A stretch of DNA of 64,000 bases from an uncultured Myxococcales bacterium (GTDB taxonomy: Bacteria; Myxococcota_A; UBA9042), in NCBI GenBank assembly GCA_903850505.1, contig CAINLT010000126.1, positions 22,534 through 86,533 on the forward strand, in the 5' to 3' direction. The first letter of the stretch is position 1. Every line of letters starts with the position of its first letter. The notes below the pieces were generated by a model. That model was not told the DNA's origin and searched no databases. It saw only the letters and a program-made list of their open reading frames with translations. This document shows, in pieces, positions 38,906 to 58,430 of this stretch. The position numbers and the translations under genes were made by a program.

Positions 38906-38956
38906 ATTGTCCGCGGGCGCCAGCCGTTGAGTCAGGCAGCTACCCCGGAGCTGTCC

Positions 38957-40375
38957 ATGCGCCATCTGATTCCCGTCCTGCTGCTCGCCACCGCCTGCGC
39001 GCCCTCCCTGCAATACCGGCAGGATGCTGCCGTCGCGTACGGCTTCTCCGCGCCGTGTGGCCAAGGGCCGTTCACGCTTTCCCTGCGCTTGAAAGGCGCG
39101 CGCTGGGGCGAAAAGCTGGCAATCGGCGGTTTTGCTCCGCACGCGGTAGTGGGGCGCTACACGATCAAGCTGGACGGCAAGCGCGTATCGGAAGGCCAGT
39201 TTGCGACTGAGCACATCGTGCAAAATGGGACGTACGCGTCGCTGCAAGGCGACCAGAAGCCGGATAACCAGCGCTGCGTGGAGAGGCCGGCGGCGGTCGC
39301 GCTGGAGCCGGTCGCGCCACCGCCGTCGCTTCCGGTGGAGCCGCCCCCGCCGTGGCAGCCGCCGCCGTTGGCCTGGCAAGCGCCGCCGCCGCCGTATGCC
39401 GTGCCGGTACCCGCTGCGCCCGTGCCGCCGCCTTTGCCGGACCCGCCGAAGGCCGTGGTCGCCGCCCAGTTGGTTGCCCTGAATCCCGGCGAGTCTGTCG
39501 CGGACGGCAGCCGCAACTTCCGTGTCGCGTCGTTCACGTGGCCGAGCGTGGACCTGATTGGCACGCCGCAGATCGCGCCGGACGCCGTGCTGGAGATCAC
39601 GCTGTGGTCGGAGGAACCCAATGACTGGGACGGCGCGACGCTGCAGTGGGTCCACGAGGTGGCCGAGCCGACCGTGCCGGAGGCGGAGTACATCGCCTAT
39701 CTGCACAAGGAGCGCCGCGAGGCGGAAGCGGACGCGAAGCGGCGGCAGGAGGAGGCGAATCGCGAATACCAGGAGCGACAAGCGGAGGCGAATCGCAAAA
39801 ACGCAGCGCGGCAGAAGCGCTGTGATGAACACCACGACGACGAGGATTGTTGGGGCAAGGGCGGCTATGACGCCTACGTGGCGTCGTGGAATGCGCCGCG
39901 CCCTCAGCCGAAGCCTGTGGTGCCGGTTGTCGTCGCTGCGCCGGTTGTGACCGCGCCCCAGCCGCGCCCGCCAGAGGGGCCACCGCCGGTCGCGCAGACG
40001 GAGATGCCGCCCCCGCAGCCGTCCTTGCACGCGGAGTGGGTGGCGGGCTACTGGCAGTGGACGGGCTTTGCCTGGTTCTGGCTGGGCGGCTGGTGGCGCG
40101 TGCCGCAGCAGGATTTGGTGGCGCAGGCCACGATGGTCGCGCCCGCGCCGCCGCCGCTTGTTCAAGTTGAGGTCGCACCGCCGCCGCCGCTGCCTGACGC
40201 GGTGTGGCTTGCGGGCGCTTGGTATTGGGACGGCCGGATCTGGCTCTGGCATTCGGGTCAGTGGACGTTGCCGCCGCGTCCGGGCCTGCTTTGGCACGCG
40301 CCGACGTGGGTGATCGACGGCCGCGGTGTGCGCTTGGTACCCGGCGTGTGGGGCGAGGTGGTCCGGTTGCGGTAG
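38957..40375 (+). CDS. proline-rich lipoprotein with C-terminal Trp/Gly-rich repeats
   Basis: MRHLIPVLLLATACAP. PPxP tracts. Basic/acidic helical stretch (KERREAEADAKRRQEEANREYQERQAEANRKNAARQKR). Three W-x-x-G-x-W-type repeats (WVAGYWQWTGFAWFWLGGWW / WLAGAWYWDGRIWLWHSGQW / LLWHAPTWVIDGRGV). Confidence 0.55.
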   Translation: MRHLIPVLLLATACAPSLQYRQDAAVAYGFSAPCGQGPFTLSLRLKGARWGEKLAIGGFAPHAVVGRYTIKLDGKRVSEGQFATEHIVQNGTYASLQGDQKPDNQRCVERPAAVALEPVAPPPSLPVEPPPPWQPPPLAWQAPPPPYAVPVPAAPVPPPLPDPPKAVVAAQLVALNPGESVADGSRNFRVASFTWPSVDLIGTPQIAPDAVLEITLWSEEPNDWDGATLQWVHEVAEPTVPEAEYIAYLHKERREAEADAKRRQEEANREYQERQAEANRKNAARQKRCDEHHDDEDCWGKGGYDAYVASWNAPRPQPKPVVPVVVAAPVVTAPQPRPPEGPPPVAQTEMPPPQPSLHAEWVAGYWQWTGFAWFWLGGWWRVPQQDLVAQATMVAPAPPPLVQVEVAPPPPLPDAVWLAGAWYWDGRIWLWHSGQWTLPPRPGLLWHAPTWVIDGRGVRLVPGVWGEVVRLR

Positions 40376-40447
40376 CGCGGGCAGGCATCAATCTAGCCAC
40401 CGGACGGGCAACCTGCTACAACGCAGCCCGCAACGTGTGAGGCAGCC

Positions 40448-40720
40448 ATGGCCAAGACCCCCGACCTGTTTCCCCAGCCAGAAGCGACCTCGGCCGAACC
40501 GCCTGCGTCGTTTGAGAAGCTCGTCGATCAGCTGGACAGGCTCGTGGCGCAGTTGGAGTCTGGCCAGCTTTCGCTGGAAGACAGCCTCGCGGCGTTTGAC
40601 ACTGGCATGGCGATTTCGCGCAAAGCCGCGGCGATCCTCGACGCCGCCGAGCACCGGCTGGAGCAGATCGCTGGCTCTCCGGACAAGCCCGAGTTGAAGC
40701 CGCTCGACGAGCCGGCGTAA
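40448..40720 (+). CDS. xseB: exodeoxyribonuclease VII small subunit
   Basis: FEKLVDQLDRLVAQLESGQLSLEDSLAAFDTGMAISRKAAAILDAAEHRLEQI. Confidence 0.85.
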   Translation: MAKTPDLFPQPEATSAEPPASFEKLVDQLDRLVAQLESGQLSLEDSLAAFDTGMAISRKAAAILDAAEHRLEQIAGSPDKPELKPLDEPA

Positions 40721-40795
40721 CGCGTTGAACTTTTCAGCAGACCCCGGCACCCCACGTAACAGGTTGCGCAACTGCGACCCGACGTGGAGGGCGGC

Positions 40796-41605
40796 ATGTT
40801 CGACACAGACAGCGGGATTGTCGTGAGCCAGAAGGTGCGCACAGAGCGACTGGACGAGCGGCTGGTGCACGCCGGCCTGTGCGGCGATCTGCGGGAATCC
40901 GCGGGCTTGGTGATGGCCGGCAAGGTCATGGTCGGCGAGCGCAAGGTGGACAAGCCGGGGACGATGGTGCCACTCGACGCGCCGGTGCGGCTGATTGGCG
41001 GCCCGCCGATGCCGTTTGTGTCGCGCGGCGGCATCAAGCTGGACGGCGCGCTGCGGCACGTGGGGCTGGACGTGACCGGCCTGAACTGCGCCGATGTGGG
41101 CGCCTCGACCGGCGGCTTCACCGATTGTCTGTTGCAACGCGGCGCCGCACACGTCGTCGCCATTGACGTGGGTCACGGGCTGTTGGCGGACAAGCTCCGC
41201 CGCGATCCACGCGTCACCGTGGTGGAGCGCACCCACGCGCGCGCGATGACCCGCGAGCAGATGCCGTGGCTCGCCGACTTGCTGGTGATGGACGTGAGCT
41301 TCATCGGTGCCCGCGCGGTGCTGCCCGTGCTCGTCGGCTTGGTGCGGCCCGGCGGTCATTTGCTGGTGCTGGTCAAGCCGCAGTTTGAGCTGCCGGCCAA
41401 CCTCGTGCCGGCCGGTGGCGTGGTGGCGGACGATGGCGCGCGCTGGCAGGCGGTGAAATCCGTGCAGGACGCCGCCCGCGATCTGGGCCTGACGCTGCGC
41501 GCGACGGCCGAGAGCGAGCTCAGCGGACCGATGGGCAACCGCGAAGTCTTCGTGTTGCTCCAGCGTCCAGATGCCGGGGTGGGGCCTGAAGACCACCGCC
41601 GCTAG
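40796..41605 (+). CDS. tlyA: TlyA-family rRNA 2'-O-methyltransferase (S4 + FtsJ domains)
   Basis: RLDERLVHAGL...SRGGIKLDGAL...VGASTGGFTDCLLQRGA...DVSFI. Confidence 0.85.
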   Translation: MFDTDSGIVVSQKVRTERLDERLVHAGLCGDLRESAGLVMAGKVMVGERKVDKPGTMVPLDAPVRLIGGPPMPFVSRGGIKLDGALRHVGLDVTGLNCADVGASTGGFTDCLLQRGAAHVVAIDVGHGLLADKLRRDPRVTVVERTHARAMTREQMPWLADLLVMDVSFIGARAVLPVLVGLVRPGGHLLVLVKPQFELPANLVPAGGVVADDGARWQAVKSVQDAARDLGLTLRATAESELSGPMGNREVFVLLQRPDAGVGPEDHRR

Positions 41606-41673
41606 CCGTGTGTTGCCGATCTGTTGCATTGGCCTCCGCTGAACCGGTATCATGCTGGGCCTATTGATGTGTC

Positions 41674-44316
41674 GTGAGGCCCGCAGTGATCGCCGATTGT
41701 CCCAGTTCCACGCCGTTCTTCGGCCGTGTGATCGTTCCCGCTCTGCTCTTTTGCCTCGCGGCCGCCGGTTGCAGCGATGCTCCGACCGCGAGCGGTGAGG
41801 CGTTGGATGCCGCCAATGGCGTTGGCGACGACCTGTTTGCCGCGTTCCCGGACGCCAAGGACGTTGCCGCCGCCGATTTCCTCGCCTCGGACGCGGCCGC
41901 CGATGCGTCGCAGTTGAGCGCCGATGGCACAAGCACCTGCGCTGCCACCGGCGCGGCGTGGTGCCCGTGCAAGGAAAACGCGGACTGCGACGGCGGCCTC
42001 TGCATCGACACGCCCAACGGCCATATCTGCGCCGCCAAATGCTTTGACCTGTGCCCCGAGGGCTTTGCCTGCGCGGGCGTGAACACGGGCGGCGGCGACA
42101 TCTCCACCATCTGCGTGCCCAAATGGGGCTGGCTCTGCGATCCGTGCAGCACCAACGCGGATTGCGACAGTCCGGGCGTTGGCAAGCAGGCCGCGTGCCT
42201 CGACTACGGCAATGCGGGCCATTTCTGCGGCGTGGACTGCACAAGCGCGGCCGATTGCCCCATGGGCTACGTCTGCGGCGAAGGCAAAACCGTCGACGGC
42301 GCAACCCGCAAGCAGTGCTGGCATGGCGCCGACGTGGGCGCGGCGGCCAGCGCGTGCGGCTGCTCGCCGCGCGCGACGGTCATGGAACTGACGACAGCGT
42401 GCTGGGTGGCCGATGCCACGAGCGGCGCGACCTGCGGCGGCTTGCGGCATTGCACCGACAAGGGCCTGGAGCCGTGCAGCGGCAAGCCCGGCAAGGAAGT
42501 TTGCAACGGCAAGGATGACGACTGCGACGGCCAGACCGACAACGCCGCGTGCGACGATCAGAACGCGTGCACGCAGGACCTGTGCGACGCGATCGCCGGC
42601 ACATGCACGCACAACGTGCTGGACGGTTCGCCGTGCAACGCCGACAACACGGAATGCACCGCCAACGACACCTGCCAGAGCGGCGTGTGCAAGCCCGGCG
42701 CGGCCAAGACGTGCAGCGACGGCAACCCGTGCACGGACGACACGTGCGACCCGAGCGGCGGCTGCGTCTTCGCCAACAACTCCGCGGGCTGCGACGACGG
42801 CAAAATCTGCACGACGGGCGACTATTGCGCGGGCGGCGTCTGCAATGCCGGCAAGAGCAACAACTGCGACGACGGCAATAGCTGCACCGACCAGACGTGC
42901 GATCCCAAGACGGGAAACTGCAACACGACGTTCAACGCGCTCAACTGCGACGACGGCAACGCCTGCAGCAGCAACGACGCGTGCAAGGACGGCGTCTGCA
43001 AGGCGGGCGTGACCGTGGACTGCAAGGACGCCGATTTGTGCACGCTGGATTCCTGCGACGTGGCAGGTGGCTGCAAGCACACGATCAGCACCGGCGTTTG
43101 CGATGACGGCGATGCCTGCACGTACGGCGAAACGTGCACCACCGGCGTGTGCAACGGCGGCGCGCAGCTGAATTGCGACGACCTGAATCCGTGCACCGCG
43201 GATTCCTGCGACAAGCTGATCGGCTGCGCCCACACGCCGCAAAATGGCGCGTGCAACGACGGCAACGCCTGCACGGACAGCGACGTCTGCTCCGGCGGCG
43301 CGTGCGTGGGCGCGCAAAGCCCGCCGTGCGCCAGCGACCAGAACTTGTGCACCGACGACGTGTGCGATCCGACGCTGGGCTGCGTGCACACCAACAACGC
43401 CTTGCCATGCACCGATGGCAGCGTCTGTACGCAAACGGACACGTGCTCCGGCGGCCTGTGCGTGGGCGGCGCGCCGCTCAATTGCGCCGACGACGGCAAT
43501 CCGTGCACAACGGAATCGTGCAATCCGGTCAGCGGCTGCGCGTCGATCAACAACTCCGCCAGCTGCGACGACGGCGATGCGTGCACGCTGAACGACGTCT
43601 GCTCCGGCGGAACCTGCAAGTCCGGCGCGGCCAAGGATTGCACTTCGCTCAACACCACCTGCGGCGACGGCAAGTGCAGCCTGGGCAGCTGCTACATGGC
43701 TCCGTACCCCATCAAGACCGCGTGTCCGACGGGCTTGTGCGATGGCTTGGGCACCTGTGAGGCGCAGACCGCACAGACGATTGACGGCTGCACCAAGGAG
43801 CCGACGGTCGACTATTTCCAGGACTGCAAGACGTGGGCCTGCTACGGCTGCGCGCTGGAGAATGGCTTCTCCGCCTACAACATCACGGATTGCGCCGGCA
43901 CGGGGTGCTTCAACCGTTTCCCGACGTTTGGCGTCAACGGCATGATCGTGATGTGGGCGGACTGGGAACAGAGCGCGTACGTCGACTGGAAGTTTCCCAA
44001 GCCGCTGATCGGCAACTACAAGATTGAGGCGGCCATTCCGCCGGGCATTCCGGCCAGCTCCGGGACGTGCACGCCGGCGCAGGCGACTTACAACACTGCG
44101 GCGAAGTATCACTTCCTGACGGCGAGCGGGGAGCTGATTGCCCCGGTGGTCAAGAACCACAGCACGACCAAGAACACCAAAGTCACGCTCTTCAGCGGCG
44201 ATGCGACCGGCCTGACCGGCATCCGGCTGTACAACGGCCCGTCGGCCAGCGGCACGCAGCCGCCCGCGTGCGAGTTCTACTTGGTTGACGCCGTGTACGC
44301 GACGCCGCAGCCATGA
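41674..44316 (+). CDS. large cysteine-rich tandem-repeat lipoprotein (myxobacterial Cys-rich repeat type) with ~230-aa non-repeat C-terminal domain
   Basis: GTG start. Lipobox LFCLAAAGC. D/A-rich linker. At least 13 copies of roughly 38-40-aa C-x-D-G-N-x-C-T-x-D-x-C-D-x-x-x-G-C repeats. Opposite-strand ORF 41650..44160 is rejected as an artefact. Confidence 0.8.
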   Translation: MRPAVIADCPSSTPFFGRVIVPALLFCLAAAGCSDAPTASGEALDAANGVGDDLFAAFPDAKDVAAADFLASDAAADASQLSADGTSTCAATGAAWCPCKENADCDGGLCIDTPNGHICAAKCFDLCPEGFACAGVNTGGGDISTICVPKWGWLCDPCSTNADCDSPGVGKQAACLDYGNAGHFCGVDCTSAADCPMGYVCGEGKTVDGATRKQCWHGADVGAAASACGCSPRATVMELTTACWVADATSGATCGGLRHCTDKGLEPCSGKPGKEVCNGKDDDCDGQTDNAACDDQNACTQDLCDAIAGTCTHNVLDGSPCNADNTECTANDTCQSGVCKPGAAKTCSDGNPCTDDTCDPSGGCVFANNSAGCDDGKICTTGDYCAGGVCNAGKSNNCDDGNSCTDQTCDPKTGNCNTTFNALNCDDGNACSSNDACKDGVCKAGVTVDCKDADLCTLDSCDVAGGCKHTISTGVCDDGDACTYGETCTTGVCNGGAQLNCDDLNPCTADSCDKLIGCAHTPQNGACNDGNACTDSDVCSGGACVGAQSPPCASDQNLCTDDVCDPTLGCVHTNNALPCTDGSVCTQTDTCSGGLCVGGAPLNCADDGNPCTTESCNPVSGCASINNSASCDDGDACTLNDVCSGGTCKSGAAKDCTSLNTTCGDGKCSLGSCYMAPYPIKTACPTGLCDGLGTCEAQTAQTIDGCTKEPTVDYFQDCKTWACYGCALENGFSAYNITDCAGTGCFNRFPTFGVNGMIVMWADWEQSAYVDWKFPKPLIGNYKIEAAIPPGIPASSGTCTPAQATYNTAAKYHFLTASGELIAPVVKNHSTTKNTKVTLFSGDATGLTGIRLYNGPSASGTQPPACEFYLVDAVYATPQP

Positions 44317-44888
44317 GCTACGCGGACGACGAGATCCGCAAGCCCAAACGCCCGCCGCCGCCGATGACGCGGGTGCGGTTGCGGCAGATCGCGGAGGACT
44401 ACGTCAGCCGTTTTGGCGGGCCGTCTAGCAACCTGCGGCGCGTGCTGAAACGCCACATCGACAAGGCCGCCCGCGCGCACGCGGAGGAGCGCGACGTGAC
44501 GCAAGGCTGGCAGGTGGAGGTCGACGCCATCGTCGCGGAGTTTCTCCGTGCCGGCGCGCTCGACGACGCGCGCTACGCCCAAAATGCCGCGCAGAGCCTG
44601 GCGCAACGCGGTGTCGCCCCGCGCGTTGTCGCGTATCGCCTGCAGCAGAAGGGTATCCAGCAGGCCGACATTCGCGGCGCGCTGGCGGATCTCGGCGACC
44701 CGCGCAAGGTGGAATGGGAAGCGGCGCTGCAGCTGGCGCGGCGGCGGCGCTTGGGGCCGTATCGGCTGCCTGAGGATCGCAAGGAACGGCGGATGAAAGA
44801 CGCGGGCGTGCTGGCGCGCGCGGGCTTTCCGCCGTCGGTTGCGTTCAAGATCGTCGATTTGGATCCAGACGAGCTGGACTTGCCATAG
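44313..44888 (+). CDS. recX: RecX-family regulatory protein
   Basis: ATG overlaps the upstream stop (ATGA). Three-helix RecX repeats, e.g. LAQRGVAPRVVAYRLQQKGI, DIRGALADLGD. Confidence 0.8.
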   Translation: MSYADDEIRKPKRPPPPMTRVRLRQIAEDYVSRFGGPSSNLRRVLKRHIDKAARAHAEERDVTQGWQVEVDAIVAEFLRAGALDDARYAQNAAQSLAQRGVAPRVVAYRLQQKGIQQADIRGALADLGDPRKVEWEAALQLARRRRLGPYRLPEDRKERRMKDAGVLARAGFPPSVAFKIVDLDPDELDLP

Positions 44889-44897
44889 TCGGTCGCG

Positions 44898-45719
44898 TCA
44901 ATCGCGAAACGTCGCCGTGTCCTTGGTCATCATCGCCATCGCCGCGGTCATCAGGTCCTCAGACAGCAGCATCGACGCGTTCCAGCTCGCCACGTATTTC
45001 AGGCCGTCTTCCACGGAGTGGTCGCGCGAGAAGTTGAGGTTCTCCTTGAGCCCGCGCACCGTCAGCGGCGACTTCAGCGCGATCGACTTGGCGACGCCTT
45101 GCGCCACGGCCAGCATCGCGTCCTTGTCGGGCAGGCACTGGCTCACCAGACCCATTTGCAGCGCCTCCGGGCCGTAGAACTCGCGCGCCGTGAACGCCAA
45201 TTCGCGCGTGCGACCGTCGCCGATAATCCGCGGCAGCCGCTGCAGCACGCCGACGTCCGCGACGAGGCCGAGGTCCAGCTCCTTGAGCGAAAAGCGCGCG
45301 TCCGCCGAGCAGTAGCGCAAATCGCACGCGGCGATCAGGTCCAGCGCGCCGCCAATGCAGGAGCCGTGAATCGCCGCGATCACCGGCTTGCGGCAGCGTT
45401 CAATCGCCGTCAGGCAATCCTGCAGCTGGAGGATGAAGCCGCGCACTTTGTCGGCCATGCGACCGTGGCACGGATCCTGGATTTGTTCCTGCAGGCCCAT
45501 GAACAGCCCGAGGTCGATGCCCGCGCAGAAGTGGTTGCCCTGACCGGTGATCACGCCGACGCGGGCGGTCGATTCGCCGTCCAGCCACTCAAAAGCCGCC
45601 TTCAGCTCAAACCACAGTTCCAGGTGCAGCGCGTTGGCGCGCTTGGGGCGGTTGAGGGAAATGGTGGCGATCTGGTCGTCCAGCGTCACGAGGAGATGCG
45701 CAAAAGTCGGCAGCGTCAT
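44898..45719 (-). CDS. enoyl-CoA hydratase/isomerase (crotonase) family protein
   Basis: ORF 44898..46007(-). Start at MTLPTFAHLLVTLDDQIATISLNRP. Crotonase motifs FCAGIDL, AAIHGSCIGGALDL. Confidence 0.85.
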   Translation of the reverse strand: MTLPTFAHLLVTLDDQIATISLNRPKRANALHLELWFELKAAFEWLDGESTARVGVITGQGNHFCAGIDLGLFMGLQEQIQDPCHGRMADKVRGFILQLQDCLTAIERCRKPVIAAIHGSCIGGALDLIAACDLRYCSADARFSLKELDLGLVADVGVLQRLPRIIGDGRTRELAFTAREFYGPEALQMGLVSQCLPDKDAMLAVAQGVAKSIALKSPLTVRGLKENLNFSRDHSVEDGLKYVASWNASMLLSEDLMTAAMAMMTKDTATFRD

Positions 45720-45894
45720 GATCAGTTCCGTGTGGCGTTTGGCGCCGCGGCGCAGCCTGACCCAAACGCGCAGGCTTGCCAAGATGCGGCCCTGATCGCG
45801 CGTGGTTTCGCAGGATTGCCGCCGCGGGCTTGTCGTGCTGGCAATCAACACTATGCTCCGCGTCGCGCTGCGCCGTTGGCAGCCTGAGGCTCCG

Positions 45895-46338
45895 ATGATC
45901 CTGACCCTGCATTCGATTCTGCGCTGGCTCGTACTTTTTGGCGGCTTGGCGGCGACTGGTCTGGCCTTCCAGGCGTGGCGCGGGAAGCCGTGGACGCCGC
46001 TGCACAAGCGCGCGAACCTGATCTACATGATTTCGATGGACGTGCAGTTCCTGATCGGCGCCGTTGTCTGGCTGACGAGCTCGCTGGTCCAGCAGGCGCG
46101 CGGCGACATGGCTGCGGCGATGCACGACCCGATCCTGCGGTTCTTCACGATCGAGCACCCGACGTTCATGCTGCTGGCGCTGGGCGCGATGCACGCGGGC
46201 TACGGCATTGCCAAGCGCGCCGGGACGGATGTGACCAAGCACCGCAACGCATTTTTTGCCTTCACCGCGTCGCTGGCGTTCGTGTTCGCGGCGATTCCGT
46301 GGCCGTTCCGCCTCGTCGGCCGGGCGCTGCTGCCGTAG
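45895..46338 (+). CDS. small 4-TM membrane protein (possible GtrA-like partner of the downstream GT2)
   Basis: ORF 45802..46338(+). Start MILTLHSILRWLVLFGGLAATGLAF. Four predicted TM helices. Directly abuts the GT2 gene. Confidence 0.45.
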   Translation: MILTLHSILRWLVLFGGLAATGLAFQAWRGKPWTPLHKRANLIYMISMDVQFLIGAVVWLTSSLVQQARGDMAAAMHDPILRFFTIEHPTFMLLALGAMHAGYGIAKRAGTDVTKHRNAFFAFTASLAFVFAAIPWPFRLVGRALLP

Positions 46339-51323: not shown

Positions 51324-53069
51324 TCAGGGTGCGCCGCAGACTTTTTTGTTCTTCCAGTCAAACGCCTTGTCCAGAACGCCAAGAAAGGCTGCGGGATCGC
51401 CCGCGTCAACGCCCAACAGGTGGCCGCCGCCGCTCATCGCCAGATGCCAGGAGTTGATGATGTCGGCGTCGGTTGTGGAGCCGATGTCGACGATGTACAG
51501 GCGCACGCCAAATGCCTTGCCGTCGGGCGAGCGCAGGACGTTGTTGCTGGCGGAGGTGGCGACGGCGGAGATGCCGGGTCGCGGGTCGCGCACGCAGTAG
51601 GCAGGGCAGTACAGGCCGGACGTGGGATCGGGCTTGCAGACCTTCTGCGGATCGGTGGAGTTGCAGTGCGCGGACAACAGCGGGTCGCAAGGCGTGGCGC
51701 CGTCGCTGCAGAAATACGCGAGGCCAGTGGGATCGGCCTTGGCCTGGCATTGCTGGTGGCTCGCGCACTTGCCGCCGACGCCGCAGTCCGCGTCGATGCT
51801 GCACGGTTTGTCGTCGACGGACTCCTTGGAGCCGGTCCAGCCGGTGCCGGTCTTGCTGCATTGGAAGACCTGCTGGCATGTGGCGCCGCCGACACAGTCG
51901 CTGTCCGTGATGCAGCCGAGGCCGGTGGACAGGCGCTTGGCCTGCACCCACGGGCCAAAATACGTGTTGCTCGACGATTCGCCGCCGTCGGTGAACAGCA
52001 CGACAACAGTGTCGCGGCACGAGCGGGCCGGGTCGACGCACGCGCCGTTCTGGCACAAGTAGTTGACGCTGCCGCAGTCGGCGTCGGCGGTGCACTTCTT
52101 GCCGTCGACGATGACCTTGTTGCGCAGGTATTCACCGACGTAGAACAGCGTCTTGCCAAGCGGCGTGCCGCCATCCGCGCGCAACTCCGGGTCGCTGGGC
52201 TGGCTCTCCGTGCCGTCCATCCACTTGCCGATCGCGGCCTTGCTGTTGAAGCCGCTCACGCTTGGGTAGGCCACGGCCAGGACTTCGCCAAAATTCTTGT
52301 TGAACCAGCTCGTCGTGCTGTCCACGCCTTGCTCGCCGTTGTCGCCGCTCACGGTGTCCTGGCCGCTGTAGGAGCCACTGTCGCACGACTTGGAGCCGAC
52401 GTTGTCGACCGTCTGCGGGAACTTGAAGAGCGCGAGGTGGGTCACCTGGTCGTCGAGCTTGGCCAGTGCCTGCTTGAACACGCCTTTGGAGACGCCGATG
52501 CGCGTGCAGCCGTTGGGGTACTTCGTGGCGTCGTATTCGCACTTCGGCCACGGGTCGTAACTGGCGCAGTTCTTGACCCCGGACTTGTTGGTCACGTCGG
52601 TGGACATCGAGCCGGACGTGTCAAAAGCGATGATGAGGTTGGCGCCGACGGCCTTGCACGCGCCGTTGACGCAGGCGGTGCCGGGGAAGCACGCCGACAC
52701 CGAGTAGCCGTCGCCGCCGCCGAGGCATGTGGCGAGCTTGATGCCCTGGCAAGTCTGCGTGCCGGGCGTGCAACTGACGACTTCCGCGGCATCGTCGCCC
52801 GCGTCGGCGTCGTTCGCAGCGTCGACAGCCGCATCCGTGCCAGCGGTGTCCAAGGCGGCGTCAGCGGTGTCGGCAACGGCGCTTGCATCCGCGGCGATGT
52901 CGGCGATCGCGTCAGTCAGCGTATCGGCGTCGGCGAGGTCCGTTGCGGCATCCGCGGCCACGTCGGGCGCACTGGTGCCAGGCGCGGTGGCGGCTTGGCT
53001 GCAGGCGACAGTCGCGAGTGCGAGACCGAGCGCGGTCAAACGCGCGCCAAAGGAGGCAAATGAGGGCAT
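51324..53069 (-). CDS. VWA-domain lipoprotein with Cys-rich modules and D/A-rich linker
   Basis: Lipobox LATVAC. MIDAS motif NLIIAFDTSGSMS. VVVLFTDGGESS. Multiple C-x-x-C modules (CQNGACV, CQQVFQC, CGVGGKC). Confidence 0.7.
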   Translation of the reverse strand: MPSFASFGARLTALGLALATVACSQAATAPGTSAPDVAADAATDLADADTLTDAIADIAADASAVADTADAALDTAGTDAAVDAANDADAGDDAAEVVSCTPGTQTCQGIKLATCLGGGDGYSVSACFPGTACVNGACKAVGANLIIAFDTSGSMSTDVTNKSGVKNCASYDPWPKCEYDATKYPNGCTRIGVSKGVFKQALAKLDDQVTHLALFKFPQTVDNVGSKSCDSGSYSGQDTVSGDNGEQGVDSTTSWFNKNFGEVLAVAYPSVSGFNSKAAIGKWMDGTESQPSDPELRADGGTPLGKTLFYVGEYLRNKVIVDGKKCTADADCGSVNYLCQNGACVDPARSCRDTVVVLFTDGGESSSNTYFGPWVQAKRLSTGLGCITDSDCVGGATCQQVFQCSKTGTGWTGSKESVDDKPCSIDADCGVGGKCASHQQCQAKADPTGLAYFCSDGATPCDPLLSAHCNSTDPQKVCKPDPTSGLYCPAYCVRDPRPGISAVATSASNNVLRSPDGKAFGVRLYIVDIGSTTDADIINSWHLAMSGGGHLLGVDAGDPAAFLGVLDKAFDWKNKKVCGAP

Positions 53070-53264
53070 GAGCAGGACTTCCGCAGCCGCGCAACGCGGC
53101 GCGTCAGAGCGTACCGGTTTTGCGCGGCTTGCGGAAGCTTGGAGTTAGGCGTCGTGCAGCAAGAACCTGTCGTCGCTTGTCGCTGGGTCGCCAAGTGCGC
53201 CCGCGGCGCGATACGTCCGGCGAAACACGGCTGGGACTTGACCGACGTGCTCTTGCAGGAGCCC

Positions 53265-55268
53265 TTACTTGGTCGGGGCAGCGGCCGGAGCCGGCGCTTG
53301 CGGCGCACCTAGCGGGCCCGGAGCGGGCGCACCCGGAGCGGCGGCCGGTGCCGGCATCGCAGCGGCCTTGGCGGCAGCGATGAGCGTGACGGGCACGTTC
53401 AGCTCGCAGCCCCAGGACTTGATGCGGTTCTGGCAGACAGCGACGACGCCGCGGTCAGTCGGCAGCGACGGAACCTGCGGGAACGCGGTCTTGAACGCCG
53501 CCATCGCGATGCCGGGGTTGGCGTACATCACGCCCCACGCACCAGCGACTTTCTCGGTCGACGCCTTGTAGACCGGCGCATCAGCCAGACCGCCCACTTT
53601 GCCGGCGGCGAAGCGCTTGCCCTGCTCGAGCGCGCCCGGACCGACCGCCAGGGCCAGCTTGGTCTTGCTCGTGCACAGCGCGAGCGCCGTCTTGTCGCCC
53701 GCGAGCGCCTTGGCCGTCGCGCCTTCTTCACCGGTCGCCAGCTTGGTCCAGTCAAAACCGACGTCCAGCGTGTCGCAGTTCGTGTCGCCGTCCTGCGCCG
53801 TACCCAACGTCAGCGTCACGCCCTTTTCTTTCAGCATCGGGCCAAACGCCGCAACGATGGGCTCCAGCTTCATCTCCGCAACAGCCTTCTTGACGATGGC
53901 CATCTGCGGATCCGCCGGCTTGTCGACGCCGCCAGCGGCAGCCTTGTCGGCCGCTTCCTGCTCGGCGATCAGCTTGGTCAGGACGCCAGAAATGATCTTC
54001 TTGGTCAGCGTCAGCACCTGCGGACCGTCGGTCGCGCCCACGCCAATCAGCAGGCCCAGCGGCGACGGGCCGTCCTGGTACAGCGCGAACGCGCTCAGGC
54101 CGTCTTCCAGCTTGGCAACGGTCGTCACGTCCGCCAGGAACGCCTTGTACGCCGCGTCATCGAGCTTCAGGATGTCCTTCAACATCGCGAGGTTTTCGTC
54201 CAGACCTTCAATCTGCGACGCCGGATCGATGCTCGCCGACATGCTCAGCCAGCTCGACGCGGGCAGCAGGTTGGTGATCGCGTTCGGCGTGTGGTGCTTG
54301 GTGCTCGCGAACTGCTTGGCGGTCTTGCTGCCTTCCTTGGCGGTCAAGCGGAATTCCGCCTTGGTGTTGTCGGCATCGGCGCTGATGATGATTTCCAGGC
54401 GCGTCAGCTCGGTCGTGAGCGCGCGCAGCTTCTTGGCGTAGCCCGCGAACAGCTGGGCCTGACCCGCCGGCTGACCGGCCATGCCGGGCGCCGAACCCTG
54501 CTCAACCATTGACAGGACCTGCTCGATCTCCTTGCCGCGCGTCTTGGTCAGGTCCTCGACCGAAATGCCGAGGTAGATGCTGCCCGGCACGGTGATCTTG
54601 TCGAGGCGCTCGATGAAGCCTTTGACCTTGGCGAAGCGATCCTTGGGCGTCAGCACCATCGTCTTGTCGCCGAGGAAGTCGACGTAGACCTTCGTGCCCT
54701 GCACGTCGATCATCGCCTCGTGGCCTTCCGCTTCCGCGCCCTTCTTGGCGGCGGCCATCGCGCCGATGGCCTTGGTCTTGTCGGTCACGTGCAGCACGAT
54801 GAACGTGCCGAGCGCCGGATTCGGCGGCGTCGCTTCTGCACCCGGCGCGGCGGGCGTCGCTTCATCCTGGTAGCCCAGGTGAATCGGCTTGGTCTTGTCC
54901 AGCCAATCGGTGCCGGTGATGCCGTAGGCGGCGAGAATCGTTGTGAAGTTTTCCGTGACGATGGCCTTGACGGAACCGCCCGGCGCCGTCAACTGCAGCT
55001 TGCTCGCCAGCGCGTCGGCGGCGTTCAGCGCGGCGTCGTAGCTCGCGAGCGACACCCAACCGACAACGCCGTCGCCAGCGACCAGCTCAACGTCCGGCAG
55101 CTCCGGCGCGGGCGGCGGGGCGGCAGGCGCTTCCGGCTTTTGGGCGGCGGCAGCGGTCGCGGACGCCTCAGCCTTCTTGGGCTCGTCTTTCTTGCAGCCG
55201 GCGGAGGCCAGCAGCGCGGACGTCGTCAGCACGGCGATAACCGTGGAATTCCAGCGATTCTTGAACAT
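53265..55268 (-). CDS. hypothetical ~665-aa lipoprotein
   Basis: ORF 53265..55385(-). Start MFKNRWNSTVIAVLTTSALLASAGC. A/K/T-rich. C-terminal AP-rich tail. Confidence 0.55.
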   Translation of the reverse strand: MFKNRWNSTVIAVLTTSALLASAGCKKDEPKKAEASATAAAAQKPEAPAAPPPAPELPDVELVAGDGVVGWVSLASYDAALNAADALASKLQLTAPGGSVKAIVTENFTTILAAYGITGTDWLDKTKPIHLGYQDEATPAAPGAEATPPNPALGTFIVLHVTDKTKAIGAMAAAKKGAEAEGHEAMIDVQGTKVYVDFLGDKTMVLTPKDRFAKVKGFIERLDKITVPGSIYLGISVEDLTKTRGKEIEQVLSMVEQGSAPGMAGQPAGQAQLFAGYAKKLRALTTELTRLEIIISADADNTKAEFRLTAKEGSKTAKQFASTKHHTPNAITNLLPASSWLSMSASIDPASQIEGLDENLAMLKDILKLDDAAYKAFLADVTTVAKLEDGLSAFALYQDGPSPLGLLIGVGATDGPQVLTLTKKIISGVLTKLIAEQEAADKAAAGGVDKPADPQMAIVKKAVAEMKLEPIVAAFGPMLKEKGVTLTLGTAQDGDTNCDTLDVGFDWTKLATGEEGATAKALAGDKTALALCTSKTKLALAVGPGALEQGKRFAAGKVGGLADAPVYKASTEKVAGAWGVMYANPGIAMAAFKTAFPQVPSLPTDRGVVAVCQNRIKSWGCELNVPVTLIAAAKAAAMPAPAAAPGAPAPGPLGAPQAPAPAAAPTK

Positions 55269-55409
55269 GTGAGCCTCTTCTTGGGGCGATTCCAAAGGAT
55301 AGATTCGTTGCGGCGGCAGGACGTCCACACGCGCACTTTGCCGATCGGGCGCGGGAGTATAGGCGCACAAGGCTGCAATGTGCAAGCGGACTTTGGTACT
55401 GACAGGCTG

Positions 55410-56966
55410 CTACGCCAACGTCGGGCCGGACTCGACCAGATGCCGTGGCGCCAGCGCGCCGGTGCGCGCGTCGATCGCGGAAGAGCCCAGCGTCGCGGTC
55501 CGTCGGCCTGCTGGCTCAGCGGAGAGCGCCCGCAGCGCCGCACACAGCGGCGTTTCCCGGTGCGGATGCGCCGCCAGCGCCTGGAATTCATCCACGGCCG
55601 CCGTCATCAGGGCGATCGCGCGCGCTGCGTCAACGGCCTGCGGCGCCACATCGCTGAGCGCCGCCTCCAGCAGTTGGGCGCACAAGGGCTGCTCCGGCAG
55701 CGCCAGCAGGAAATAGGCGCGCAGGACGGCAATCGCGCGCTCGCCGTCGTGCTTGTGCATCGCCGCGACGATCTTGGCGATTTCCGGGCCGTGGTCCCAC
55801 GTCTGGTGCAGCTGCGCTGGATCAGGCAGGGCCAGGCGGTCGCGCTCGGGCGCATCGAGCGCTGCGGAAGCATGCACGAGGCCGACGGCAAACAGGTAGA
55901 GAGGCAGCCACTGCTCGGCCGTCAAGTCGGCGCGCAGACGGCGCACGGCAGACGTGAGGATCAGGAGCTGCATCGCGTCCGCGCGGTCTTCGACGACCGA
56001 CTCGTCGTTTTGCCAGCGGGGATCAAACCGCAGCAACCGTTCAGACGCCGCGAGCGAGAGGGATTGCGCGAGGACGTCATGCGGCACGCCGAACTCCAGC
56101 GCCTTGACGGAAGCGCGGTAGGGCGCATCGCCTTTGCCATCGAGCACGTGCGGGCGAAATTTCGGCTCCGCAAACGCCTTGCCCTTCTCCGGATTCTCGG
56201 CTGCCGCCATCGCGGCAAAACGCCCGGACACAGCGGCAATGCGCGCGGCGTGGTGGCGCGTGTAGGCCAGGTGCTCCGGCCGTTCCGCCAGAGCGCGGGC
56301 AAAGCGCGGCAGGATGGCTGCCACACCGGCTTCACCGGCGGCCGCGCGCAGGTCGGCCAAGCGCGTGACCGCCAGGACCGTCACGCCGCCATCGCCGGGA
56401 TTGGCAGCGGCCAACGTCAACAAGTCGTGCTCGATTTCCGCCAGCGGTCGACCTGCGGCAATTGCCGCCGCCGCGCTGGATTCCGCCGCCGCGCCGCGCC
56501 GTGCTGCCACATGCGCCGCAAGTTCAGTCGCGCTGCCGTCGCCTGCCGCCGTCGCGGGGGCCAGCACGGTCCGACCGCCCAGGCGCTCGGCCACCAGCGT
56601 CGCCGCCACCAGCCACGGCAACGCCGCGCGGGCCGGGTCAAAATCGCTCGCAGCGCGCAGCGCGTCGGCGAGAGCCAGCCACGCCGGATCCAGCATGCCG
56701 CCCGGCCGATTGGCCACCCACGCGCCCAGCGCGCCCGCGAGCACGTCTGTCCGCCGCCCGCGCGCGTGCCAGTCGATGATTTCCGCGGCGATGCGGCTGC
56801 CATCGGCAAAGCGCATCGCCTCATCCAGCGCCGCCAGCACAGCGTCGTCCGTGCGCATTTCCAGCGACGGCAGCAACGGCTGGGTCAGCGGCCGGCCAAG
56901 GTGGTCCAGCCAAGGGCCGACGCCTTGCTTGGCGGGAAGCTGCACCTGTTTGGGCGTGTGTCGCAT
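55410..56966 (-). CDS. hypothetical 518-aa Ala/Leu-rich protein coupled to the sigma-54 activator
   Basis: Start 1 nt downstream of the stop of the NtrC-like gene. No recognisable motifs. Confidence 0.5.
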   Translation of the reverse strand: MRHTPKQVQLPAKQGVGPWLDHLGRPLTQPLLPSLEMRTDDAVLAALDEAMRFADGSRIAAEIIDWHARGRRTDVLAGALGAWVANRPGGMLDPAWLALADALRAASDFDPARAALPWLVAATLVAERLGGRTVLAPATAAGDGSATELAAHVAARRGAAAESSAAAAIAAGRPLAEIEHDLLTLAAANPGDGGVTVLAVTRLADLRAAAGEAGVAAILPRFARALAERPEHLAYTRHHAARIAAVSGRFAAMAAAENPEKGKAFAEPKFRPHVLDGKGDAPYRASVKALEFGVPHDVLAQSLSLAASERLLRFDPRWQNDESVVEDRADAMQLLILTSAVRRLRADLTAEQWLPLYLFAVGLVHASAALDAPERDRLALPDPAQLHQTWDHGPEIAKIVAAMHKHDGERAIAVLRAYFLLALPEQPLCAQLLEAALSDVAPQAVDAARAIALMTAAVDEFQALAAHPHRETPLCAALRALSAEPAGRRTATLGSSAIDARTGALAPRHLVESGPTLA

Positions 56967-58412
56967 TCAGGACTCCGTGGTTTCGTCTGAAGTGTCGTCA
57001 TCGGTGCGCGTTCCGCCGAATTCGTCGAGGCGACGGTACAGCGTGCGGACCGCCATGCCCAGCAGCCCAGCCGCGCGCCGTTTGTCGCCGGCCGTCAGGC
57101 GGAGCGTCTCGGTGATCAGCAGCCGCTCCACTTCTTCCAGCGGCGTGCCGACGGCGATGTGCAGGACCCGGCTCGGCCCTTCGGTCTCGACGCGTGCGAT
57201 GCGCTCGGGCAACTCCGCCAGCGTGATGATTTCCGTGCGCGCCAGCACCACAGCGCGTTCCATCGCATTTTCAAGTTCGCGCACGTTGCCCGGCCAGGTC
57301 CACGCCTGGAGCGCGGCCATCGCGTCCGGGGCGATCGCGGTCACGGCCTTGCCATTTTGGACGGCGAAACGCCGCAGGAAGTGCATCGCGAGGCCCGGGA
57401 TGTCCTCGCCGCGCGCGCGCAACGGCGGCAGTTCGATGGCGATGACGTGCAGGCGATAGAACAGGTCGGCGCGGAAACGGCCGGCTTGCACTTCCGCCTC
57501 CAAATCGCGGTTGGTCGCCGCCACGACGCGCACGTCGACGCGCTGCGACTGCGCTGAACCGACGCGCTGCACCTCGGACTCCTGCAACGCCCGCAGAAGC
57601 TTGGCTTGCATCCCCAACGGCAGCTCGCCCACTTCGTCGAGCAGCAGCGTGCCGGTATCCGCCTGCTGAAAACGGCCGTCCGTACGCGCAATGGCGCCGG
57701 TGAAAGCGCCGCGCTCGTGGCCAAAAAGCTCGGATTCGACGAGCGATTCTGGAATTGCCGCACAGTTCACGGCGACAAACTGCCCCGTGCGACCGCTGAG
57801 CCGATGCAGCGCGCGGGCGAACACCTCTTTGCCCGTGCCGCTCTCGCCTTGCAGGAGGACGGTCGTGCGCGCCGGCGCCACTTGGCCCAACAGGTCGATC
57901 GCGCGTCGCACCGCCGGGCTGTGACCGACGATGTCGCGACGCTGGCCGGCGAGCGCCAGTTCCTCGCGCAGCGCGGTATTTTCCCAATGCAGCCGAGAAC
58001 GTTCCAGTGCGCGGCCGACGGATCGCACCAGCTCGGCGCGCCGCAGCGGCTTGGTCACAAAATCATAGGCGCCGGCTTTCATGGATTCCACGGCGGTTTC
58101 CACCGTGCCGTAGGCCGTCATGACGACGACCGCCGTCGATGGCGTGGTCCGCTGCACAGCGCGCAGCAGTTCCAGGCCATCGACGCCGGGCATCATCAAA
58201 TCCGTGACGAGCACCGCCACGCGTTCCCGCCGCAGCGCCGCAAGGGCCTCGCGGCCATCGGCGACGGCGAGCGTCGGCCACCCTTCACGCTGCAGGATCT
58301 TCTGCACGCTCTGGAGGTTGGCCGCGTCGTCGTCGACGATGAGCACGACGGGCGCGTCAGCGTCCACCGCAACCGGCTTGGGCAACTCAGCATGCGGATC
58401 CGCAACGGCCAT
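56967..58412 (-). CDS. NtrC-family sigma-54-dependent response regulator (REC-AAA+-HTH)
   Basis: REC VVLIVDDD...LVTDLMMPGVDG. Walker A GESGTGKE. GAFTGA. ESELFGHE. C-terminal HTH. Confidence 0.9.
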   Translation of the reverse strand: MAVADPHAELPKPVAVDADAPVVLIVDDDAANLQSVQKILQREGWPTLAVADGREALAALRRERVAVLVTDLMMPGVDGLELLRAVQRTTPSTAVVVMTAYGTVETAVESMKAGAYDFVTKPLRRAELVRSVGRALERSRLHWENTALREELALAGQRRDIVGHSPAVRRAIDLLGQVAPARTTVLLQGESGTGKEVFARALHRLSGRTGQFVAVNCAAIPESLVESELFGHERGAFTGAIARTDGRFQQADTGTLLLDEVGELPLGMQAKLLRALQESEVQRVGSAQSQRVDVRVVAATNRDLEAEVQAGRFRADLFYRLHVIAIELPPLRARGEDIPGLAMHFLRRFAVQNGKAVTAIAPDAMAALQAWTWPGNVRELENAMERAVVLARTEIITLAELPERIARVETEGPSRVLHIAVGTPLEEVERLLITETLRLTAGDKRRAAGLLGMAVRTLYRRLDEFGGTRTDDDTSDETTES

Positions 58413-58430
58413 CCGAGCCTCTTTTGCCGC

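Follow-up and report, generated by a model that had tools for sequence, protein, structure and literature searches.

The locus under study raises two linked questions: what is the role of a large cysteine-rich repeat lipoprotein, and why does the start codon of a gene for a modulator of RecA overlap its stop codon? Both genes lie in the window, i.e., the whole 64,000-nucleotide stretch of DNA that was analyzed, which comes from an uncultured Myxococcales bacterium. The best overall explanation, to which we assign a probability of roughly 0.65, is that the first gene encodes a surface adhesin or lectin, which recX has come to adjoin through an accident of gene order.

The lipoprotein gene and its product

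The open reading frame first listed for the lipoprotein (41674..44316, plus strand) opens with GTG and encodes the 880 aa that had been described from the sequence alone. However, translation probably begins at the GTG at 41686, which gives 876 aa, since the N-termini of the orthologs align there and a GAGG kept in the orthologs is found 6 nt upstream (41676–41679). Ten full-length orthologs, with 64–94% identity, are available for comparison. The gene is laid out as follows:

41686..44316, plus strand: lipoprotein coding sequence, 876 aa when read from the GTG that is probably the true start
41686..41772, plus strand: type II signal peptide ending in the lipobox L-A-A-A-G-C, read from the sequence
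41773..41937, plus strand: D/A/S-rich low-complexity tether, aa 34–88, read from the sequence
41938..42549, plus strand: non-repeat Cys-rich N-domain, aa 89–292, 27 Cys
42550..43638, plus strand: array of 14 Dicty_CTDC units, aa 293–655, 56 Cys, delimited by regex dissection, autocorrelation and PF00526
43639..44313, plus strand: C-terminal region, aa 656–880, comprising a degenerate 15th unit, a Cys-rich connector and a predicted all-beta domain

Judged by sequence pattern, the protein has a lipoprotein signal peptide ending in a lipobox, followed by an invariant cysteine. The lipobox had already been recognized in the sequence-only reading; the N-terminus runs ...LLFCLAAAG-C-SD, in which the lipidated residue is Cys33 of the 880-aa open reading frame, and the [AGS]-C-S-D junction is found in 10 of 10 orthologs. 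The mature +2 residue is Ser and not the Lys that acts as the inner-membrane retention signal in M. xanthus lipoproteins (PMC3222651); Ala at +7 is matrix-type by the M. xanthus rules (PMC3222651), and this position varies among the orthologs. The product would thereby be exported and lipid-anchored in the outer envelope. It contains 101 cysteines; if the 98 that follow the lipidated one were all paired, there would be as many as 49 disulfides.

The tether, likewise noted before as a D/A-rich linker, is poorly kept among the orthologs. Between the tether and the repeat array lies the N-domain of ~200 aa, which is strongly kept in the orthologs, is present in 11 of the best 120 family matches, and terminates in a CNGKDDDCDG MopE-like motif. 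Its AF2 model (pLDDT 73) returned no PDB fold match (best E 1.4), and its comparison with Pfam at E ≤ 10 yielded nothing beyond a sub-threshold match to the MopE motif, so that this part of the lipoprotein has neither a structural nor a family match.

Genomic neighborhood

The genes that flank the lipoprotein gene are all on the same strand:

40448..40720, plus strand: xseB, exonuclease VII small subunit (Pfam Exonuc_VII_S, 53 bits; TIGR01280, 59 bits)
40784..41605, plus strand: tlyA-family rRNA 2′-O-methyltransferase (TIGR00478, 186 bits against a cut-off of 185.8; Pfam FtsJ and S4)
44313..44888, plus strand: recX, 191 aa, ATG start (Pfam RecX_HTH2; clade profile against PDB)

The most stable neighbor of the lipoprotein gene is tlyA, which precedes an ortholog in eight lineages, including the outgroups L090 and L091. 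The upstream xseB–tlyA pair, of which xseB is the first gene, is kept in L001, L007, L088, L090, L091 and L093. The lipoprotein gene occurs together with recX in six lineages (the window, L088, L089, L001, L093 and the P0134 contig). Two others (L007, and P0008 on three contigs) have xseB–tlyA–recX without the lipoprotein gene, and three (L090, L091 and L092) carry an ortholog at 64–67% identity without recX within 5 kb. The close lineages are approximately equidistant, at 86–89% concatenated identity, and L007 (about 87–89%) is as close as the carriers.

The linkage for which a synteny check in relatives had been suggested is, therefore, not conserved, as either gene occurs without the other. 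Since close lineages have tlyA–recX alone, while distant orthologs follow tlyA without recX, the adjacency is recent and dispensable, and the two genes seem to have become neighbors by chance, without forming a functional unit. The lipoprotein gene would historically have stood after xseB–tlyA, with recX coming to lie directly downstream of it in one genus-level clade.

It might also be proposed that the lipoprotein gene is a recent horizontal island between tlyA and recX, hence its patchy presence. Its presence or absence between otherwise collinear genomes is compatible with such an origin, as is the variability of the spot, where some lineages carry an inserted GST and WYL regulator gene pair behind recX. 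However, this origin is improbable, because the outgroups L090 and L091, whose tlyA is 76–80% identical, already possess tlyA–lipoprotein, which makes the lipoprotein gene older than its adjacency to recX. Moreover, its GC3 (0.88) is in keeping with that of the window, and its surroundings are free of integrases, transposases, tRNAs and flanking repeats; tRNA genes and Rfam families, sought across the window because they can mark islands, were likewise not found. The L007 spacer also retains TTGCCAATCCGCCGCA, similar to the 5′ portion of the spacer in the carriers (TTGCCGATCTGTTGCA), which is what a deletion would leave behind.

The repeat array, a proposed stalk

Tandem cysteine-rich units of two alternating subtypes had been seen in the protein, at least 13 in number and about 38–40 aa in length. 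The array and the alternation are borne out, but the units are shorter, with 25–28 aa and four cysteines each, and are counted as 14 clean copies plus a degenerate 15th. The A units (CxDxNxCTxDxCDxxxGC, 26–28 aa) alternate with the B units (CDDGxACTxxDxCxxGxC, 25 aa) to generate seven A/B double units of ~52 aa each, and the protein autocorrelation peaks at 51–52 and 103 aa. The array matches Pfam PF00526 (Dicty_CTDC) with 64.3 bits against a cut-off of 27 (E 8e-18, 6 stretches), and this is the sole Pfam entry at E ≤ 0.01. The models proposed earlier for these repeats did not apply: DUF4215 (PF13948) is not matched, and TIGR02232 is absent, since no NCBIfam model matches the lipoprotein even at E ≤ 10. 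The Dicty_CTDC family is listed among the families without a solved structure (PMC8078820), and a comparison of the whole lipoprotein with the PDB by sequence gave no match.

The four-cysteine repeat of ~24–26 aa is shared with the PF00526 proteins of Dictyostelium, such as the spore-coat/matrix protein SP75 and PsiA/DicA1, which are extracellular, disulfide-rich and built of tandem repeats; in PsiA/DicA1, the repeats come after a lectin-like PA14 domain (PMC3325183, PMC3068167). In contrast, the protein of the window is bacterial, N-terminally lipid-anchored and composed of strictly alternating subtypes, and it carries other N- and C-terminal domains.

A second comparison is offered by TraA, the cell-surface kin-recognition receptor of Myxococcus xanthus, which belongs to the same phylum and shares the design of an anchor, a Cys-rich stalk and a lectin-like head. 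The Cys-rich tandem repeats of TraA have been proposed to form a rigid stalk below a variable head (PMC3325183), and its authors see a likeness between these repeats and Pfam00526 (PMC3325183). However, the polarity is opposite: the lipoprotein has its lipid anchor at the N-terminus and its head at the C-terminus, whereas TraA has an N-terminal PA14 head and a C-terminal MYXO-CTERM. Neither PA14 (Pfam) nor TIGR04201 or the MYXO-CTERM model TIGR03901 (NCBIfam, E ≤ 10) was detected in the lipoprotein, its C-terminus (...YLVDAVYATPQP) is without a hydrophobic helix or Arg-rich tail, and it has no traB-like partner gene.

The C-terminal domain

The C-terminal region, described earlier as a unique domain, is indeed so and is conserved among the orthologs, with no Pfam match at E ≤ 10 and no PDB match by sequence. 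In an exhaustive HMMER search, the domain matched only 18 of 1.84 billion representative clusters, always at the protein C-terminus. A word-indexed homolog search with the domain alone gave nothing, although orthologs exist; its relatives were consequently taken from the exhaustive HMMER and full-length searches.

The AF2 model of the domain, built on only 12 sequences, is all-beta (pLDDT 73, pTM 0.72). Compared with the PDB by Foldseek, it is most similar (E 2e-4 to 1e-2) to sugar-binding modules, nearly all of them CBM35, CBM6, CBM29 or discoidin C2 domains, for example the CBM35 of Xyn30D (4qaw) and the CBM6 of an agarase (2cdo); these matches are weak to moderate, with TM 0.3–0.6 (0.45–0.60 normalized to the target) and 10–14% identity. 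The predicted beta-sandwich thus suggests that the C-terminal head resembles carbohydrate-binding modules, from which it differs in having no sequence-level match to CBM6/CBM35 and in being carried by a stalk instead of an enzyme. A rare domain with a CBM-like predicted fold is thereby brought to light; that it might found a new, rare family of glycan-binding domains is a long shot. Assignment as a golvesin C-terminal-like domain was considered and dropped, as no NCBIfam or Pfam model supports it.

Protein family and likely function

At E < 1e-10, the family of the lipoprotein numbers more than 4,028 proteins, which come from Myxococcota, Deltaproteobacteria and Binatia MAGs and are for the most part 1,000–1,500 aa long. 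In seven members that were sampled, the C-terminal fifth holds a domain that differs from one protein to the next (Lectin_C, Fibrinogen_C, LTD, D8C_UMOD, ALK_LTK_GRD, Gly_rich_2 or Lcl_C), most of these domains reaching the last residues. In the literature that was searched, no work on Dicty_CTDC lipoproteins of bacteria came up, and this family of more than 4,000 proteins is uncharacterized. Thousands of relatives probably share this type of repeat stalk, on which C-terminal lectin-type heads can be exchanged.

The lipoprotein is most likely an adhesin or lectin, holding a glycan- or ligand-binding head off the membrane. In the proposed architecture, the lipid anchor would be followed by the flexible tether, the Cys-rich N-domain, the 14-unit Dicty_CTDC stalk and, distally, the predicted beta-sandwich head. 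Such a very large myxobacterial stalk family with swappable heads may provide the basis for surface recognition among bacteria that are social or predatory.

The cysteine content could instead point to a chiefly metal-binding or redox role, either MopE-like copper binding or a thiol-rich buffer, for which the 101 cysteines and the CNGKDDDCDGQTD motif in the N-domain speak. Pfam Cu-binding_MopE matches here with 21.2 bits (E 3.6e-4); however, this score is below the cut-off of 27, the match spans 15 residues, and the model describes a short motif. The regular four-cysteine spacing, the even number of 98 cysteines and the predicted export argue for structural disulfides, and the lectin-type heads on family members count against a metal or redox function, which we, therefore, regard as distinctly unlikely compared with an adhesin.

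The recX gene

The reading of the downstream gene as a member of the RecX family holds. Its product scores 34.5 bits against Pfam RecX_HTH2 (PF02631; cut-off 26) and 19.6 bits against RecX_HTH3, which is under the cut-off of 26; of the three tandem three-helix repeats of RecX proteins (HTH1–3), HTH1 was not detected by Pfam in the protein of the window, although some homologs carry PF21982. The profile of the RecX clade matches the solved RecX proteins 3d5l (1.8e-10), 3e3v, 3c1d and 3dfg. Twelve NCBIfam RecX equivalog models match with 22–60 bits, and none of their cut-offs, which range from 129 to 266 bits, is reached. Based on these profiles, the protein is classed as a family member outside every curated RecX subgroup and can be taken as a genuine RecX, i.e., an ordinary RecA modulator. 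It is similar to solved RecX proteins, such as that of E. coli (3c1d), in the profile match and the length of ~190 aa; unlike the reference proteins, it bears an N-terminal Pro/Lys-rich extension and is encoded after tlyA or the lipoprotein gene rather than after recA. In total, 953 homologs were found, and those with 61–64% identity occupy unrelated gene contexts. A RecX cluster at 46% identity derives from a Myxococcota MAG.

In this lineage, the expectation of a recX gene placed behind recA is not borne out. E. coli RecA was used as the tblastn query against the window and 86 loci (80 of them GTDB genomes, with up to ±10 kb around recX), with a positive control that worked. There was no RecA match inside the window or at any of the 86 loci, and none of the 80 genomes of the RecX clade (Myxococcota and Alphaproteobacteria) had recA at 10 kb or less from recX. 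The M. xanthus recX (MXAN_6708) is likewise unlinked to recA1 (MXAN_1441) and recA2 (MXAN_1388) (PMC12288472, PMC7029660). The adjacency to the lipoprotein gene, thus, matters little for recombination biology, as recX is unlinked to recA among the sampled relatives and its present neighbor is dispensable.

Gene overlap and expression

Two further elements bear on the expression of the pair:

41624..41653, plus strand: promoter-like element TTGCAT-N18-TATCAT in the tlyA–lipoprotein spacer, from phylogenetic footprinting
44313..44316, plus strand: ATGA overlap of the lipoprotein stop TGA with the recX start ATG, read from the sequence

The overlap reported earlier is present as described and is found in four of the six carrier lineages (the window, L088, L089 and L093); a 3-nt spacer takes its place in L001 and the P0134 contig. 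The hexamers of the promoter-like element recur 18 nt apart, on either side of a diverged spacer, in the window, L089, L088, L001 and L090, and the −35 hexamer matches three of six positions. A strict consensus scan for sigma-70 promoters and terminators over 40300–45200 gave no promoter and no plus-strand terminator. The lipoprotein gene has a promoter-like element of its own, kept together with the GAGG Shine–Dalgarno sequence in these five lineages, and this element would serve as its promoter.

Since recX overlaps the lipoprotein stop codon, co-transcription and termination–reinitiation are anatomically plausible. In the carrier clade, recX is probably expressed at least partly as a distal cistron, through read-through and putative termination–reinitiation at ATGA. 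As four lineages keep this overlap and the scan placed neither a terminator nor a consensus promoter between the genes, recX expression could hinge on lipoprotein transcription in the carriers, which would tie the two genes together in regulation, if not in function. A stronger version, which we consider a long shot, is that the carrier recX has lost any promoter of its own and depends entirely on the lipoprotein mRNA, on which it would be the distal cistron translated by termination–reinitiation at ATGA, so that the RecX dosage is set by an envelope-adhesin promoter. If so, the restraint of RecA would be governed by the adhesin promoter and not by DNA damage, an unusual rewiring of recombination control.

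The recurrence of the ATGA overlap and the lack of a terminator or consensus promoter between the genes could also be read as signs of a functional two-gene module, which would, for instance, relay envelope or matrix status to RecA control, with the overlap selected for stoichiometry; xseB, tlyA and, in L091, recJ lend the region a DNA-repair flavor. The synteny mosaic, however, largely refutes such a module, leaving it very unlikely: L007 and P0008, as close as the carriers, keep tlyA–recX alone, the orthologs at 64–67% identity do without a nearby recX, and the RecX homologs at 61–64% identity are scattered over unrelated contexts. Two carriers have the 3-nt spacer instead of the overlap, and one product is cytoplasmic while the other is exported. 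Chance adjacency of an adhesin or lectin gene and recX is preferred, and the locus provides a clean case against reading a 4-nt gene overlap as functional coupling.

Stability of the repeat array

The repeat region had been viewed as a likely hotspot of in-frame expansion or contraction, and its double units are regularly spaced in the DNA (153–156 nt). At the DNA level, TRF detected no tandem repeat of the array in the lipoprotein gene, only a trivial 12-nt repeat; self-comparison, hence, bears out the periodicity in the protein but not as a DNA tandem repeat. The copies are 60–77% identical in DNA, with single units reaching 72% at most, and the units are 30–60% identical in amino acids. No exact repeat inside the gene exceeds 18 nt, a length that codon-shuffled controls also reach (mean 13.5, maximum 19). 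Given this low amino-acid identity and the short exact repeat, the units are old. Since the repeat number is the same in nine of the 10 orthologs (14 units; the same regex counts 13 in the tenth, of 833 aa), the array is not an expansion hotspot. A contingency locus, in which slippage or recombination would add or remove units in frame and so vary stalk length or antigenicity, has the 14 regularly spaced tandem units in its favor, but is hardly credible in view of the diverged DNA and the constant unit number. In the four orthologs that were aligned, the units pair one-to-one with those of the window array, and the cysteine positions of the window protein are all invariant.

Architecture of the cysteine-rich lipoprotein

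The cysteine-repeat protein encoded directly upstream of recX is best read, from its sequence and from structural models, as a surface protein with an anchor, a tether, a stalk, and a head. The two genes are:

41674..44316, +, lipoprotein ORF, 880 aa, GTG start
44313..44888, +, recX, 191 aa, ATG start

The N-terminus reads as a lipidation signal, in which a hydrophobic core ends in LAAAG-C, and is followed by a D/A/S-rich segment (aa 34–88). Since the N-termini of the orthologues (MIA...) align at the GTG at 41686 and a GAGG, kept in four other lineages, lies 6 nt upstream of it, this codon is likely the true start, giving a protein of 876 aa. According to the sorting rules of M. xanthus, Lys at +2 is an inner-membrane signal and Ala at +7 is matrix-type (PMC3222651); the mature lipoprotein begins C-S-D-A-P-T-A, so that its +2 Ser is not the inner-membrane signal, and its +7 Ala is matrix-type, yet varies among orthologues. 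Of its 101 Cys, 98 lie downstream of the lipidated Cys, an even number that would be compatible with full disulfide pairing. The ORF has a GC3 of 0.88. Opposite it, on the minus strand, run two long ORFs (41650-44160, 836 aa; 42822-43673, 283 aa, the latter with a GC3 of 0.89); they are not genes but shadow ORFs, produced by coding DNA of high GC, although naive gene calling could include them.

The tether is separated from the array by a conserved Cys-rich, non-repeat domain of ~200 aa (aa 89–292). This domain, which ends with a CNGKDDDCDG motif whose MopE motif score is below the cut-off, is present in only 11 of the 120 top family matches; its model (pLDDT 73) yielded no fold match.

The array itself (aa 293–655) comprises 14 four-Cys units of 25–28 aa, as delimited by a Cys-pattern regex, with A units (CxDxNxCTxDxCDxxxGC, 26–28 aa) and B units (CDDGxACTxxDxCxxGxC, 25 aa) in strict alternation, and a degenerate 15th unit follows. 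Autocorrelation peaks at 51–52 and 103 aa in the protein and at 153/156 and 309 nt in the DNA. The two alternating subtypes described in the sequence-only reading are thus present, while its unit length of 38–40 aa is replaced by 25–28 aa. The array matches Pfam PF00526 Dicty_CTDC (64.3 bits, cut-off 27); the TIGR02232/DUF4215 type suggested earlier is rejected because the lipoprotein matches no NCBIfam model at a threshold as loose as E ≤ 10, and its repeats do not match DUF4215.

The repeats are stable. The 10 full-length orthologues (833–887 aa, 64–94% identity) contain 14 units by the same regex, except one with 13, and in four aligned orthologues, the units correspond one-to-one with those of the window protein, with all its Cys positions invariant. 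At the DNA level, the copies share 60–77% identity, TRF detected no tandem array in the gene, and the longest exact direct repeat is 18 nt, which falls inside the codon-shuffled range (mean 13.5, maximum 19). Units share 30–60% amino acid identity, with means of ~45% within and ~33% between subtypes. The stable unit number, together with the TRF result and the short exact repeats, speaks against the hotspot of expansion or contraction that had been anticipated here.

The head and its proposed role

The C-terminal domain has no sequence match in Pfam or the PDB and is rare, with 18 matches among 1.84 billion representative clusters, C-terminal in all of them. AF2, run on 12 orthologous sequences, gives an all-beta model (pLDDT 73, pTM 0.72), whose best PDB fold matches are nearly all sugar-binding beta-sandwiches; the matches include CBM35 of Xyn30D, CBM6 of agarase, CBM29, and factor V/VIII C2 (E 2e-4 to 1e-2; TM to target 0.45–0.60).

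A full-length search places the lipoprotein in a family of at least 4,028 proteins (E < 1e-10), mostly of 1,000–1,500 aa, from Myxococcota, Deltaproteobacteria, or Binatia MAGs, and mostly annotated as hypothetical or cysteine-rich repeat proteins. The C-terminal fifth differs in each of seven sampled members, which carry Lectin_C, Fibrinogen_C, LTD, D8C_UMOD, ALK/LTK glycine-rich, Gly_rich_2, and Lcl_C heads (one each). What is new here is one member with a rare C-terminal domain; its large uncharacterized family is already catalogued.

We propose that the disulfide-locked Dicty_CTDC array would act as a rigid spacer, through which the predicted CBM-like head may be presented to a glycan or other ligand in the matrix, on prey, or on kin. 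The closest characterized analogue is M. xanthus TraA, with PA14 as its lectin head, MYXO-CTERM as its anchor, and Cys-rich TIGR04201 repeats, for which the role of a rigid stalk has been proposed; its authors noted that these repeats resemble Pfam00526 proteins of Dictyostelium (PMC3325183). The lipoprotein shares this type of design with reversed polarity. Membership of TraA itself is rejected, as the PA14, TIGR04201, and MYXO-CTERM models do not match the lipoprotein.

RecX and its separation from recA

The downstream product is a RecX-family protein by sequence, as the sequence-only reading had proposed: tested against RecX HMMs, it passes RecX_HTH2 (34.5 bits, cut-off 26). It is also matched by 12 NCBIfam RecX models, each below its equivalog cut-off, and has 953 homologues; four solved RecX structures, 3d5l (best, 1.8e-10), 3e3v, 3c1d, and 3dfg, are matched by a profile built from its clade. 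The nearest GTDB genomes by RecX are uncultured Myxococcales MAGs (L007, 86%; L008, 63% identity), followed at ~45% identity by other Myxococcota and many Alphaproteobacteria.

A tblastn search with E. coli RecA gave no match in the window and 86 loci, 80 of which come from GTDB genomes and extend up to 10 kb on each side of recX; as a positive control, a Walker-A regex recovered recA in E. coli. In M. xanthus, recX (MXAN_6708), which is under LexA-independent regulation, is separate from recA1 (MXAN_1441) and recA2 (MXAN_1388) (PMC12288472, PMC7029660). Rocha et al. found recA and recX co-localized for close orthologues, not for distant putative recX, e.g., in Firmicutes (PMC1193525). An unlinked recX, initially considered unexpected, is therefore normal in this lineage.

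Gene order among relatives

The order xseB-tlyA-lipoprotein-recX occurs in six lineages (carriers), and two equally close lineages, L007 and P0008, do not have the lipoprotein gene.

Carriers with ATGA overlap: window, L089/P0002, L088/P0004, L093/P0009
Carriers with 3-nt spacer: L001/P0007, P0134/P0005 contig
L007: xseB-tlyA-recX, 52-nt spacer, then the same ECH, GT2, and asnB genes at 87–92% identity
P0008 lineage: tlyA-recX, 168-nt spacer, three independent contigs

The concatenated AsnB, GT2, ECH, and RecX identities to the window (L001, 89.3%; L007, 88.9%; L088, 88.1%) nest the non-carrier L007 among carriers. Lipoprotein orthologues with 64–67% identity follow xseB-tlyA in L090 and L091, with no recX within 5 kb, and lie in an unrelated context in L092. 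RecX homologues at 61–64% identity occupy other contexts, namely after a Dicty-repeat paralogue, Rieske, and PALP genes in L004 and adjoining a PAS/GAF kinase in L005. Most parsimoniously, the tlyA-lipoprotein pair is ancestral, recX was placed downstream later in one genus-level clade, and the lipoprotein gene has since been deleted at least twice, because P0008 has a GST and WYL insertion common to the carriers L001 and L093, which L007 does not contain. The L007 spacer keeps TTGCCAATCCGCCGCA, which resembles the 5' part of the carrier spacer, TTGCCGATCTGTTGCA, and would be consistent with such a deletion. The adjacency to recX, previously singled out as noteworthy, is an accident of recent date that is confined to one clade and has been undone repeatedly; it is absent from both non-carriers and from the distant orthologues.

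The insertion, absent from the window, consists of a GST-family gene and an HTH_11/PafC-like/WYL-domain regulator directly after recX (L001, 7674-9116; L093, 7297-8715; P0008 contigs). In actinobacteria, regulators of the WYL/PafBC type govern DNA-damage responses that do not depend on LexA. Since the induction of M. xanthus recX is likewise LexA-independent, with its regulator not identified (PMC12288472), the WYL-domain protein is, by analogy, a candidate recX regulator in the sister lineages.

The outgroup L091 (809-4912) has recJ, a CesT-like gene, and pspA ahead of xseB-tlyA; DNA-repair genes (recJ, xseB, and, in the clade of the window, recX) thus collect repeatedly around tlyA, without recA among them.

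Expression and the gene junction

The junction reads ...CAG CCA TGA, in which the ATGA at 44313-44316 is common to the lipoprotein stop and the recX ATG, confirming the overlap reported earlier. The four-nucleotide ATGA overlap is the commonest overlap in bacterial operons; it says nothing on shared function. Because the scan found no terminator or consensus promoter between the genes, it is plausible that carriers translate recX by termination-reinitiation, as a distal cistron.

Upstream of the lipoprotein gene, TTGCAT-N18-TAT(C/G)AT is conserved in five lineages, with a variable 18-nt spacer and with the conserved GAGG and GTG downstream. This element, not called by a strict consensus promoter scan, is a phylogenetic footprint of a putative promoter. 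A direct repeat, TGTTGC-N5-TGTTGC (41611-41627), whose copies are one helical turn apart, overlaps the -35-like hexamer that lies between tlyA and the lipoprotein gene. It is kept in three to four lineages (window, L088, L001, and partly L089) and could be an operator for some regulator.

Remainder of the window

Outside this locus, the window is an ordinary stretch of myxobacterial chromosome, with genes that include a Ser/Thr kinase-receiver fusion, a sigma-54 activator, TPR proteins, RNase E/G, glycosidases, and an ammonium transporter; no tRNA genes, Rfam families, or mobile-element genes were found in it.

3138-5090, -, hybrid histidine kinase
5095-6837, -, Ser/Thr protein kinase with C-terminal receiver domain, adjoining the former
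38927-40375, +, Pro-rich predicted lipoprotein, 482 aa, signal ...LLLATAC, W/G-rich C-terminal repeats
44898-46007, -, enoyl-CoA hydratase ORF, 369 aa as mechanically called, over-extended
51324-56966, -, three consecutive large ORFs (~580–606, 706–715, and 518 aa), coding-type GC3
56967-58430, -, sigma-54 activator gene, with the three ORFs downstream of it

The three minus-strand ORFs have no Pfam match at E ≤ 1e-5. As its orthologues are 273 aa, the enoyl-CoA hydratase would start near 45719; its gene converges with recX, the stop codons being 9 nt apart, and no terminator-like hairpin was called in the gap. The Pro-rich protein, which shows a faint BcpO-like match (21 bits, cut-off 80), is kept in L088 (62% identity) directly upstream of xseB. 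The kinase-receiver fusion beside a hybrid histidine kinase is a signalling architecture typical of myxobacteria.
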